From: a plasmid
DNA: 63,589 nt
Strand: one strand, 5' to 3'
Assembly: GCF_055900595.2 (NCBI RefSeq)
Contig: NZ_PP320290.1
Shown: positions 39,001 to 42,000 of the stretch, in pieces
Layout: every line of letters begins with the position of its first letter
Position numbering within the stretch: the stretch's first letter is position 1
Position numbers: made by a program

Positions 39001-42000
39001 AGGCAAACTAAACGTAGTTGCAGTAAGTCGCTTTGATGCTGTTTTCATCGTAGGGCAGCGTCACGCTAACGATAACTTTTTGGTTCTGGATGTGAAGGAG
39101 GTGATGAATCATTGAAATCCAGAAAAGGTGCCGGATTGCGCCAACAATCCGGCTGGGTAGGCAATTTAAATTGTGAGGTTCAAAATGCCATTGTGGATTA
39201 TACACTATGCTGAAGATGTCGCAAACGGAGTGCAAACAAAGTCGCATCCGATGAACGCAGCGCAATGGGATCACTTCCGTTTCTGGTTGGCAGTGTTCCG
39301 GCGGATTAAAGAAGCCGCAATGTAATCTGTAACTGTCTCAGGGGCGCTGTATGCGCCCCTTTTTAATATCCTTGCCCGGACTCCTTTCCCTGTAAATTTA
39401 TCGGGATCAAGGGCGGATCGTGGCCCTGAACGTGCGCACCATTGAGCGCTGCATCGCAGCGGAACCGGAAAATTTTTTTCCGGCCAATGAGTGCCCTTGT
39501 CACCGGAACGGTGACAAGTATGCACGCACAATTACACGAACAGGCAGCACCCATGCCCGGCCTGACAGGCCGGGAGCTATATCATAATGTGGGATGCTAT
39601 ATGTGAAAGGTGAAGGTTAATACTGCGGACCTGAAGCGTCAGGATTCTGAGCGGTAGAGCTATTTTGTGTGCGCTGCTCTTCGTCAACTCCAGTGATTTT
39701 TTTTCGGCTGTTGCTGGTTCTTTTTTTTCCAACTCGTCCGGCAGTAATGTCCTTGATATCACGTAATGTAACGTCTGAAAAACCCGCATCGTTGAGGAAT
39801 TTCAGTATCTCTTTATCTTCATATCCTTTCGAATCTTTCAGCTTCTTAATGTCAGACTTAAGCTCGTCGAGTACGTGCTTTTTCTCAAGCCTTTCCGACG
39901 TCACATCAGGCAAGTCGTCGAGAATGCTTTTGAATTTTCCGATGTCCTCACTGCTATAAAATGCTTTCTTTTTTGCAGGCATATGCCCTCCCAATAATGT
40001 CAAAATCGCCATGCCGAACCGGAGAAAATCGACCCAGGCTATTCGGGTGATTTTACATGATGCCCGGCACGATTCAATTGCTCTGCCTGCCAGGCCCTTC
40101 GCTGCTGGCTTTCAAACCTCGCCGATGGTAGAATTCAATGAGGTATTTAAGTACGGGACAAGATGTGTTTTTGGAGTACCGCCGACACGCGGCGGCCGTC
40201 CAAAAACGTCTTGGTCAGGGCAAGCCCCGACACCCCCTAACGAGGTTAGCTATCTGATGAGCCGTAGCGAGAGCAGAAAAACAGACGATCGAATCCAGGT
40301 GAGATGTTCCACAGAAGTGAAAGCTAAACTCACCGAAAAGGCCCATGAAGCAGGGCTTAGTCTTAGTCAATATCTTATCAAATCTGGGCTTGGAAAGCGC
40401 ATTCAATCGAAAGGCAATTACAATGCACTTGCCGCTCTTGTAAAGATAACAGCCCTTCAAAAACATCTGTTTAACGAAGGTGCCGGAGTTCATAGCAAGG
40501 AGTATTCAGAGATTCTGATCGAGGTCAAAAAGGCCGCACAGAAACTGCAACAGGAGATGGATGGTGATACCTAAAATCATTGAGGGCCGAAGGGACAAAA
40601 AGTCCAGCTTTGGTCAGCTGATTAAGTACATGGCAGACAAGCCGTCTCAGGAGTTGACTGATACAGTTCAGCCTACTCCTGAGACGGCTTTGGCTGTTAA
40701 ATCAGATATGTTCGAAGGGTTAAACAATTACCTGACCCGTAAGCAGAAAGTGATCAGCACACCGGTGGATGTTGAGCCAGGTGTACAGCGTGTTGTGGTT
40801 GGTGATGTTACCTGCCAGTACAATACCTTCTCGCTCGATGGTGCAGCACAGGAAATGAATTCAGTTTCTCAGCAAAGCACACGCTGTAAAGATCCAGTTA
40901 TGCACTATGTTCTCTCATGGCCTGACTATGAAAAGCCGAATGATGATCAGGTTTTCGATTCGGTGAAGTTTACACTGGCATCGATGGGCATGTCCGATCA
41001 CCAGTATGTTGCTGCCATCCACCGGGATACAGATAACCTGCATGTGCATGTTGCTGTTAACCGCATCAATCCCCAGACATATAAAGCAGCCTCATCGAGC
41101 TTTACCAAAGACACTCTTCATCAGGCGTGCCGCTTACTGGAATTGAAGAATGGTTGGTCCCATTCAAACGGTGCATATGTGGTTAATGACCGTCAACAGA
41201 TTGTCCGGAACCCTCACAGCAAGAAAGAGCGGGGCAACTGGCGCTCACTCGATCGCATCAACAAGATGGAGAATAAAGAGGGGGTTGAAACGCTCTATCG
41301 CTATATCGTTGGTGATGAACAGGTAGGCGGTAGTCGTCAAAACTTGATCCATGTTTCAGCTGGGCTTCGTGAAGCCAAAAGCTGGGATGATGTGCATAAG
41401 ACATTTGCAGACATCGGTCTTCGTGTCGAAAAAGCACAGGGGAAAAAGGGCTACGTCATTACCCACGAACATCAAAACCAGAAGACGGCTGTTAAGGCGA
41501 GTCTGGTATTTAACAAGGCGCAATATACCCTGAAGTCGATGGAAGAGCGCTTTGGTGAATACCAGCCTTCACATATTGAACCGGCCAAAGTATCGGTATT
41601 TAAAACCGCATATACCCCTGGTGCTTATCGTCGAGATGCCAATAAACGTCTGCAGCGTAAAATTGAGCGCGCAGAAGAAAGAATGCTGCTCAAGGGTCGC
41701 TATCGCGCCTACCGAAACAATTTACCGATATATTCTCCGGATAAGGATCGCATCGCCGATGAATACCGGAAAATTGCCCAACATACCCGGTTGGTGAAAA
41801 ATAACGTCCGGCATTCTGTTTCAGATCCTCATACCAGAAAGCTGATGTACAACCTGGCTGAGTTCAAACGCCTGCAGGCGGTTGCCAATCTGCGTCTTAG
41901 CTTGCGTGAAGAACGCAACGGCTTCAGGGCGGCTAACCCACGGCTTTCTTACCGGGAGTGGGTCGAACAGGAAGCACTGAAGGGTGATAAGGCAGCGCTC

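Follow-up and report, generated by a model that had tools for sequence, protein, structure and literature searches.

A conserved, apparently undescribed hairpin element between the leading operon and orf35 of a pOXA-48 plasmid

Introduction

The plasmid sequence NZ_PP320290.1 (NCBI RefSeq assembly GCF_055900595.2), whose full length of 63,589 nucleotides (nt) is the window analysed here, carries a cluster of perfect inverted repeats on the leading side of its origin of transfer (oriT), and the question raised by this locus is whether these stem-loops belong to oriT itself, act on the DNA strand that enters the recipient, or have some other role. The first-pass annotation had described 39130-40256 as a hairpin-dense region next to oriT that contains a divergent gene for a basic protein, had regarded the nic site as not assignable, and had suggested as a fallback that the stem-loops may be single-strand initiation or single-strand promoter elements. 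Many complete pOXA-48 plasmids of 63,589 bp, in records typed as IncL/M, MOBP and MPF_I, match the 1.7 kb around the cluster at 100 % identity, and this match shows the window to be a complete pOXA-48 (IncL), a carbapenem-resistance plasmid. The region 39100-40270 also shares 98 % identity with the IncM archetype pCTX-M3 and is almost identical to the Erwinia plasmid pEL60.

The interval is the junction of oriT and the leading region of pOXA-48, and it consists of three separate parts, namely oriT, the gene orf35 and a hairpin element. The oriT, the nic site and the basic-protein gene orf35 were already known, whereas the covariation-supported element is new and apparently undescribed. The locus matters since pOXA-48 is a major vehicle of carbapenem resistance, and little is understood of what happens directly after it enters a new cell.

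A conserved structured element in the leading region

The inverted repeats listed by the first-pass annotation, including both those of the cluster and CCGCCG acacg CGGCGG upstream of nikA, were all recovered at their positions, and the hairpin density of the region is confirmed to lie far beyond chance. When 39330-39620 was folded as single-stranded DNA, z-scores of -7.2 (minus strand) and -7.5 (plus strand) were obtained, and none of 200 dinucleotide shuffles was as stable. In a fold scan of the whole plasmid (63.6 kb; 150-nt windows, DNA parameters, GC-corrected z), the segment 39426-39575 ranked first among all 150-nt windows on both strands (z = -5.65 and -5.70). Four perfect hairpins within 130 bp constitute the unique maximum of the plasmid, the background being 2.8 perfect hairpins per kb, and two more perfect hairpins (39130-39153 and 39340-39360, the latter being part of a terminator) lie inside the interval of the first-pass annotation. 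The cluster and the features that frame it are as follows.

39340-39365, plus strand: intrinsic terminator T1, AGGGGCGC tgtat GCGCCCCT followed by TTTTT (hairpin 39340-39360), which ends the leading operon
39388-39408: invariant 21-nt block CCCTGTAAATTTATCGGGATC, whose sequence is kept in IncL/M and Pantoea-type plasmids though the flanks are only ~60 % identical
39428-39581: conserved structured element of ~155 nt, with closing stem P1 round h1 and h2, then h3 and h4
39436-39444 with 39485-39489 and 39491-39494: closing stem P1, which encloses h1 and h2
39447-39452 / 39456-39461: hairpin h1, CGCTGC/GCAGCG
39465-39472 / 39476-39483: hairpin h2, CCGGAAAA/TTTTCCGG
39496-39505 / 39509-39518: hairpin h3, CTTGTCACCG/CGGTGACAAG
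39556-39564 / 39566-39574: hairpin h4, CCCGGCCTG/CAGGCCGGG

Within the 291-bp spacer between the convergent genes, the element is located after T1 and before the orf35 stop codon, and its third and fourth hairpins are separated by a variable spacer of ~37 nt that diverges freely among relatives. Relatives were found via Orf35 homologues of intermediate identity, which have the same gene order and the same spacer length; they include Pantoea-type loci (L013 and L014) and metagenomic loci (L020/L026) at 63 % Orf35 identity, as well as two loci (L015 and L017) at 86–88 %, while further loci were added by a pattern scan with the invariant 21-mer. One metagenome match from that scan (L024) shares only the 21-mer, looks eukaryotic and was treated as a chance match. 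In the relatives, identity of the spacer to pOXA-48 is only ~58–63 %, but the position and the architecture of the element are kept.

Evidence for conserved pairing was obtained in several ways. An unbiased search for perfect hairpins in the relatives revealed stems at the same positions with changed sequences: in h2, CCGGAAAA/TTTTCCGG is replaced by CCGGAAT/ATTCCGG; in h3, CTTGTCACCG/CGGTGACAAG is replaced by CTCGTCACCG/CGGTGACGAG, then by CCCGACCCG/CGGGTCGGG and then by CCGTCCTG/CAGGACGG; and in h4, CCCGGCCT/AGGCCGGG is replaced by CCCGGCCA/TGGCCGGG. In Pantoea-type plasmids the h3 sequence is largely different, yet the hairpin is still formed. P1 (CATTG/CAATG with a covarying extension), h1, h2 and h4 were recovered independently by RNAalifold on a plain MAFFT alignment. 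In a covariance-model alignment, standard pairs made up 95.9 % of pair cells, as compared with 29–41 % when the partners were slid by 1–3 columns, and changes on both sides occurred in 10 of 40 pairs, a number reached by none of 500 shuffles; the covariation score was 0.152, against 0.060 in shuffles, and compensatory changes affected seven of the ten pairs of h3. The covariance-model alignment leans toward the model, whereas the listing of perfect hairpins and the RNAalifold result are independent of it. MAFFT had placed h3 out of register in distant sequences, which the covariance-model alignment mended for the most part, and since L013 and L023 are still misregistered in it, the pair counts are conservative for those two rows.

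Variation within the IncL/M group follows the same pattern, as 27 of its 32 variable columns are unpaired (binomial p = 3e-5). The other five fall in stems; two of these make up one compensatory pair, and a third results in G-T pairing. Hardly any variation is seen in the junction nucleotides, in the arms of h1, h2 and h4 or in the 21-nt block at 39388-39408. The foot of the T1 stem carries a compensatory change as well, its basal A-T pair being replaced by G-C in Pantoea-type plasmids. Taken together, these comparisons show that the element is maintained by selection on base pairing. The 21-nt block is itself partly palindromic (TCCC..TAAATTTA..GGGA), and by eye it contains no convincing sigma-70 promoter or integration host factor (IHF) site.

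The cluster is thus a conserved structured element, apparently undescribed and specific to the IncL/M and Pantoea/Erwinia-type lineage. The covariance model matched all IncL/M and Pantoea-type loci, and a search with cmsearch gave no match in the R64, pTH114-3 or pTA1 loci. Among plasmids, blastn of the cluster returned only IncL/M members at 93 % identity or above; phages gave no match, 5426 E. coli genomes contained no chromosomal copy, and the invariant junction sequence was not found when viral contigs were scanned for it as a pattern. An Rfam 15 scan of 36000-41000 (E <= 1) yielded no family within 39100-40260, and the only match in the scanned segment, a microRNA model on a palindrome in nikB, is spurious. 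Two familiar explanations for such repeats were rejected. An element of the repetitive extragenic palindrome or bacterial interspersed mosaic element (REP/BIME) kind, or of the miniature inverted-repeat transposable element (MITE) kind, was ruled out, as there is one copy per plasmid, always in the same context, with no other significant match in the window. None of the hairpins h1–h4 is an intrinsic terminator either: a T tract follows none of them on either strand, and T1 alone fits that definition.

The origin of transfer and the transferred strand

The proximity to oriT claimed by the first-pass annotation is borne out, and the nic site that it had left unassigned can be resolved; the corresponding motif has been published for this plasmid family. 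The features of the oriT end of the interval are as follows (the arrow marks nic).

40150-40255, minus strand: minimal oriT, an exact match to the 106-bp pCTX-M3 oriT fragment (AF550415, positions 31616-31721)
40158-40166, minus strand: nick region ACATCTTG↓T, with predicted nic between 40159 and 40158
40167-40184 with 40190-40207: 18-nt imperfect inverted repeat GTTTTTGGAGTACCGCCG / CGGCGGCCGTCCAAAAAC, 83 % complementary
40214-40221 with 40224-40231: 8-bp inverted repeat GTCAGGGC / GCCCCGAC
40257-40574, plus strand: nikA (mobA), encoding a ribbon-helix-helix relaxosome accessory protein
40561: start of nikB (relaxase), which follows nikA

The 106-bp pCTX-M3 fragment was reported to be sufficient for mobilisation (PMC6112013, PMC7440800), nic at ACATCTTG↓T was predicted in pCTX-M3 from similarity to R64 (PMC8125031), and four base changes in the nick motif abolish self-transfer of pCTX-M3 (PMC7440800). 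The R64-type nick consensus, ACATCYTG↓T read on the strand leading away from nikA, is matched by ACATCTTGT at 40158-40166 on the minus strand. The repeat CCGCCG acacg CGGCGG (40179-40195) is the core of the 18-nt imperfect repeat at 40167-40207, which is the counterpart of the NikA-binding 17-bp repeat of the R64 oriT. The 8-bp repeat, which on the minus strand sits in GGGGTGTCGGGGC..GCCCTGAC, is conserved in pOXA-48, pTH114-3, R64 and Tatumella pTA1. Alignment of the oriT regions of these four plasmids revealed a shared architecture on the nicked strand, in which the GGGGTGTCGGGGC..GCCCTGAC repeat is followed by a 17–18-nt inverted repeat of variable sequence and then by the nick region; the R64 oriT sequence gave a 100 % match to R64 and ColIb-P9, and the sequence of R64 itself was aligned. 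The nikA product matched the NikA-like family PF21983 (E = 3e-18) and the MobA equivalog (E = 4e-31).

On these similarities, 40150-40255 is assigned as an R64-type oriT (IncI1 / IncL/M, MOBP NikB). NikA is expected to bind at the 18-nt repeat, and ACATCTTG↓T is the expected cleavage site of NikB, at 40159/40158 of the minus strand; the exact cut in IncL/M plasmids is placed by homology to R64, where the nick was mapped (PMC8125031). With nic at this predicted position, the minus strand is the transferred one, the leading region lies at lower coordinates, and the strand enters the recipient 5' end first, from 40158 toward lower coordinates. The exact oriT and nic fix which strand enters and which genes are readable on it, and they are thus a starting point for models of early expression.

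The element lies ~600–730 nt from nic and outside the sufficient oriT fragment. That the cluster is part of the functional oriT or holds the nic site, an idea favoured by its location within ~600 bp of nikA and its richness in inverted repeats, is scarcely credible, since the 106-bp fragment identical to 40150-40255 suffices and mutation of the nick motif within it abolishes self-transfer, the nick consensus and the NikA-type repeat occur only at 40150-40255, and plasmids with a homologous oriT do not carry the cluster. The placement of the cluster in oriT by the first-pass annotation is accordingly refuted, the sufficient fragment lying within 40013-40256, the very segment that the annotation had named as the alternative site of a mobilisable oriT.

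The orf35 gene

The divergent basic-protein gene noted in the first-pass annotation is real and corresponds to orf35 of pCTX-M3.

39617-39982, minus strand: orf35, encoding 121 amino acids (aa), or 131 aa from an alternative start at 40012, with a basic C-terminal tail
40050-40077, minus strand: promoter-like site TTGAAT-16-TAAAAT upstream of orf35, a consensus match only

In pCTX-M3, orf35 is the first gene of the leading region; its product is similar to R64 YggA, and the gene is dispensable for transfer (PMC6112013, PMC7440800). Its replacement raised nikA, nikB and traH transcripts 40-, 23- and 80-fold, respectively, and increased mobilisation ~100-fold (PMC6112013, PMC7440800), and orf35 is a published negative regulator of nikA, nikB and traH. 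The sense strand of orf35 is the transferred strand, and the gene therefore cannot be expressed before the complementary strand is made.

Sequence searches of Orf35 against Pfam, NCBIfam and the PDB returned nothing significant, and the family is small, with 36 cluster representatives among 1.84 billion proteins in an exhaustive search. In the alignment of the family, ~85 N-terminal residues are conserved and the basic tail varies. The AlphaFold model contains four helices and is of low confidence (mean predicted local distance difference test score, pLDDT, 64.5); Foldseek found no significant structural neighbour of this model (best E-value 3), and part of it weakly, though not significantly, resembles helix-turn-helix domains. 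The name 'MobC', given to Orf35 in some records, is without backing from the MobC family model.

Possible functions of the element

The role proposed here, which is advanced tentatively and as possible rather than probable, is that the element acts as folded single-stranded DNA on the incoming transferred strand, where it would serve as a barrier or a priming landmark. It would fold on the incoming minus strand and mark where the early genes that have this strand as their template give way to the orf35–oriT end. The element might stall complementary-strand synthesis, might stall an RNA polymerase transcribing the single strand toward the relaxase-bound 5' end, or might nucleate priming, and any of the three would time the double-strand conversion of orf35 and oriT. 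Preference is given to this single-strand DNA role because no other part of the plasmid folds as strongly as a single strand, because the element follows immediately upon the terminator of the last gene for which the transferred strand is the template, and because stem-loops in the leading region of F have been shown to stall complementary-strand synthesis (bioRxiv 10.64898/2026.01.09.698686).

A more specific form of the proposal, speculative and rather unlikely, is that IncL/M-type leading regions contain a new cis-acting single-strand DNA device, in which a three-way junction and hairpins on the incoming strand halt the synthesis of the complementary strand, or an RNA polymerase transcribing the single strand, shortly before orf35 and oriT are reached, so that Orf35 is delayed. 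If such a device exists, the relaxase-bound end would stay single-stranded until recircularisation, the delay of the tra repressor Orf35 would open a short window of derepressed transfer in new transconjugants, and the trailing-end counterpart might be a conserved hairpin that lies within nikB, across nic from the element.

Several observations weigh against a role as folded single-stranded DNA. Perfect palindromes fold alike on both strands, as DNA or as RNA, and the two clean wobbles (in h1 of L013 and h3 of L017) are G-T on the plus strand and A-C mismatches on the transferred strand; the fold energies slightly favour the minus strand and the wobbles favour the plus strand, which makes the strand evidence contradictory and weak. 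Compensatory changes in perfect palindromes can also come from template-switch mutation rather than from selection. Moreover, the element is absent from R64, pTH114-3 and pTA1, all of which have the same oriT type. Self-transfer was assayed for pLMAB212, a mini-derivative of pCTX-M3, and was abolished in pMOBS, the version of pLMAB212 with a mutated nick region (PMC7440800). According to the construction details, the tra segment of pLMAB212 appears to start inside orf35 and thus to be without the element, although the table of the same paper gives that segment as 30634-59557, which would include it (PMC7440800). Because pLMAB212, taken to be without the element, still self-transfers, the element seems to be dispensable for laboratory transfer, and accessory rather than essential.

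The most serious of the other explanations, somewhat unlikely in itself but not far behind the single-strand DNA role in likelihood, places the function at the level of RNA: as the structured 3' untranslated region (UTR) of the orf35 mRNA (minus sense) or as plus-sense RNA read past T1, the element would insulate the convergent units, protect 3' ends from exonucleases or yield a small regulatory RNA. Its location exactly between convergent genes is as this would require, one or two hairpins also occupy this place in the sister plasmids pTH114-3 and R64, orf35 lacks a canonical terminator, and RNA would account for the covariation just as well. Under RNA parameters, folding in the minus sense is 0–8.6 kcal/mol more stable in every lineage, while two G-U-compatible pairs favour the plus sense. 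However, no U-tract follows h1–h4 on either strand, no convincing conserved promoter adjoins the element, no Rfam family matches it, and the near-invariant sequence of the junction, h1, h2 and h4 exceeds the needs of a simple 3'-end stabiliser. If the element were only an RNA insulator or were without effect, the region would be fully explained by published work. The latter case, in which the palindromes have no function and represent a lineage-specific insertion kept perfect by intrastrand template-switch mutation and low divergence, is distinctly unlikely. It would account for the absence of the element from related plasmids with the same oriT type, for its apparent dispensability in laboratory transfer and for the inverted loop of h3 in L017 (GAA to TTC), which is a template-switch signature, but it is at odds with the retention of position and architecture at only ~60 % spacer identity while the h3–h4 spacer diverges freely, and with the avoidance of stems by substitutions (p = 3e-5); nor does a mutational bias of local palindromes explain the invariant long-range P1, the junction nucleotides and the 21-nt block.

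Two further readings are less likely still. The palindromes may be double-stranded operators for dimeric plasmid proteins such as Orf35 or NikA, as the near-invariance of the h1, h2 and h4 arms across lineages and the putative regulatory function of Orf35, with its weak and non-significant helix-turn-helix-like portion, might suggest. This is very unlikely, given that there are four different palindromes, of which h3 changes most of its sequence and is still a hairpin, that P1 pairs segments 40 nt apart, a feature unpredicted by operators, and that 8–9-mers are shared by the hairpin arms and the orf35/nikA promoter region at chance level (8-mers, P = 0.32). The single-strand promoter part of the fallback in the first-pass annotation corresponds to a promoter of the Frpo or single-strand initiation (ssi) type, which would drive early transcription from the transferred strand. 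Location in the leading region, on the first-entering strand, and the strong fold are shared with such promoters, but this explanation is highly improbable: stems of 6–10 bp are too short for -35 and -10 elements, no conserved -35/-10 is rebuilt and the structure is not one long imperfect stem-loop, the sole -35-like hexamer (TTGTCA in h3) is lost in Pantoea-type plasmids, no plus-strand gene follows before nic, so that transcription toward oriT would give only orf35 antisense, and much better promoter candidates are found upstream of the leading operons. The initiation part of the fallback, a single-strand priming or barrier role, may hold and is compatible with the covariation.

Gene layout and other structured sites

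The genes and signals between the leading operon and the element comprise the following.

38579-39115, plus strand: orf34
39130-39153: 9-bp perfect hairpin GCCGGATTG cgccaa CAATCCGGC, between orf34 and the small open reading frame (ORF), also present in pTH114-3
39185-39325, plus strand: conserved short ORF (46 aa), the last gene of the leading-region operon, for which the transferred strand is the template

On the lower-coordinate side of nic, the genes of the plus strand (ssb, orf33, orf34 and the 46-aa ORF) all have the transferred strand as their template, which is the expectation for a leading region. The 46-aa ORF is called as a gene in five related loci (L013, L014, L015, L026 and L030), and a protein-level homologue is readable in pTH114-3; it is unannotated in the two pOXA-48 records inspected. 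Within this ORF, at 39197-39224 on the minus strand, a strong promoter-like match, TTGCGA-16-TATAAT (10 of 12 positions), is oriented away from oriT; an antisense transcript could be driven by it, or it may be a chance match.

A repeated element of ~95 nt occurs at ~36290-36420 and ~37255-37350, upstream of two leading-region operons, where it precedes an antirestriction gene at 36429 and the orf32-ssb operon (ATG 37352), respectively. It includes a near-perfect plus-strand TTGATA-N17-TATAAT, a conserved hairpin in the 5' UTR (CGAAAGGCA..TCTTTCG) and GCGCCCCGACTGGCG, and the transferred-strand folds at the two copies have z-scores of -4.3 and -4.9. These repeats are better candidates for leading-region promoters, possibly acting on single-stranded DNA, than the hairpin cluster. 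GC-rich perfect hairpins of 8–9 bp also recur in the leading region 33986-38115 (at 33986, 34513, 35065, 36247 and 38095); those at 36247 and 38095, the two for which the gene context was checked, lie between plus-strand genes. This recurrence suggests regular stem-loop punctuation of the operon.

The second most structured spot of the plasmid is located in nikB at 40640-40689 (codons ~27–43), where a 14-bp perfect inverted repeat is formed by AGCCGTCTCAGGAG and CTCCTGAGACGGCT, ~480–530 nt from nic on the trailing side, in a position that roughly mirrors that of the leading-side element. Pantoea-type plasmids retain a hairpin at these codons and show a compensatory change in it, and nikB of Tatumella pTA1 has a completely different sequence with a stem of ~18 bp at the same place; the hairpin is not present in R64 and pTH114-3.

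Comparison with known systems

The 106-bp oriT core of pOXA-48 is identical to that of pCTX-M3. R64 shares with pOXA-48 the order of the oriT parts, the nick region CA(C/T)ATC(C/T)TG↓TCCCG and the adjacent nikA and nikB genes, but its nick region reads ACATCCTG rather than ACATCTTG, and its long inverted repeat differs in sequence. Moreover, oriT-nikAB heads the tra operon in pOXA-48, whereas in R64 it is located beside trb (PMC6112013). Like Orf35, R64 YggA is small, combines a conserved helical N-terminal part with a basic tail and is encoded by the first leading-region gene, which diverges from nikA; the two proteins are ~29 % identical in the alignment made here, while the published value is 32 %.

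The same position between the same convergent genes can be compared in other plasmids of this oriT type. In pTH114-3, the terminator is separated from the orf35 stop codon by only ~20 bp. In R64, the spacer between yggA and the leading operon is ~84 bp and contains one palindrome and one terminator-like hairpin, in contrast to the 291-bp spacer and the covarying multi-hairpin element of pOXA-48. At 4053-4136 of the R64 locus (L012), a perfect 10-bp palindrome (TGATGTGACA a TGTCACATCA) stands right after the yggA stop codon and is followed by the terminator-like hairpin, and this arrangement is a much shorter counterpart of the pOXA-48 spacer.

The ssi sites of the G4 and phiX174 types, which depend on primase or PriA, are groups of two or three neighbouring hairpins on single-stranded DNA. 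The element resembles them as a cluster of adjacent hairpins, and it has no phage or plasmid match outside its lineage; the class itself is defined functionally, by rifampicin-resistant conversion of single strands to double strands, in one orientation, in an origin-defective filamentous-phage assay.

Frpo, ssi1–3 and ssp2 (the last also with a roadblock role) are single-strand promoters and initiation signals of F and IncI1 plasmids, which, like the element of pOXA-48, are strongly folded, conserved, non-coding parts of the leading region on the transferred strand, in which structure is in part kept over sequence. No sequence similarity links the element to these single-strand elements, as blastn found nothing in plasmids outside IncL/M or in phages. 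Instead of one long stem-loop, the pOXA-48 element has a three-way junction and a row of short hairpins; it rebuilds no -35/-10, and it is located downstream of the early genes rather than upstream. Recent work on F indicates that folded single-strand elements of the leading region time early expression and double-strand conversion, and the element described here is a concrete candidate for such timing outside the IncF and IncI groups.

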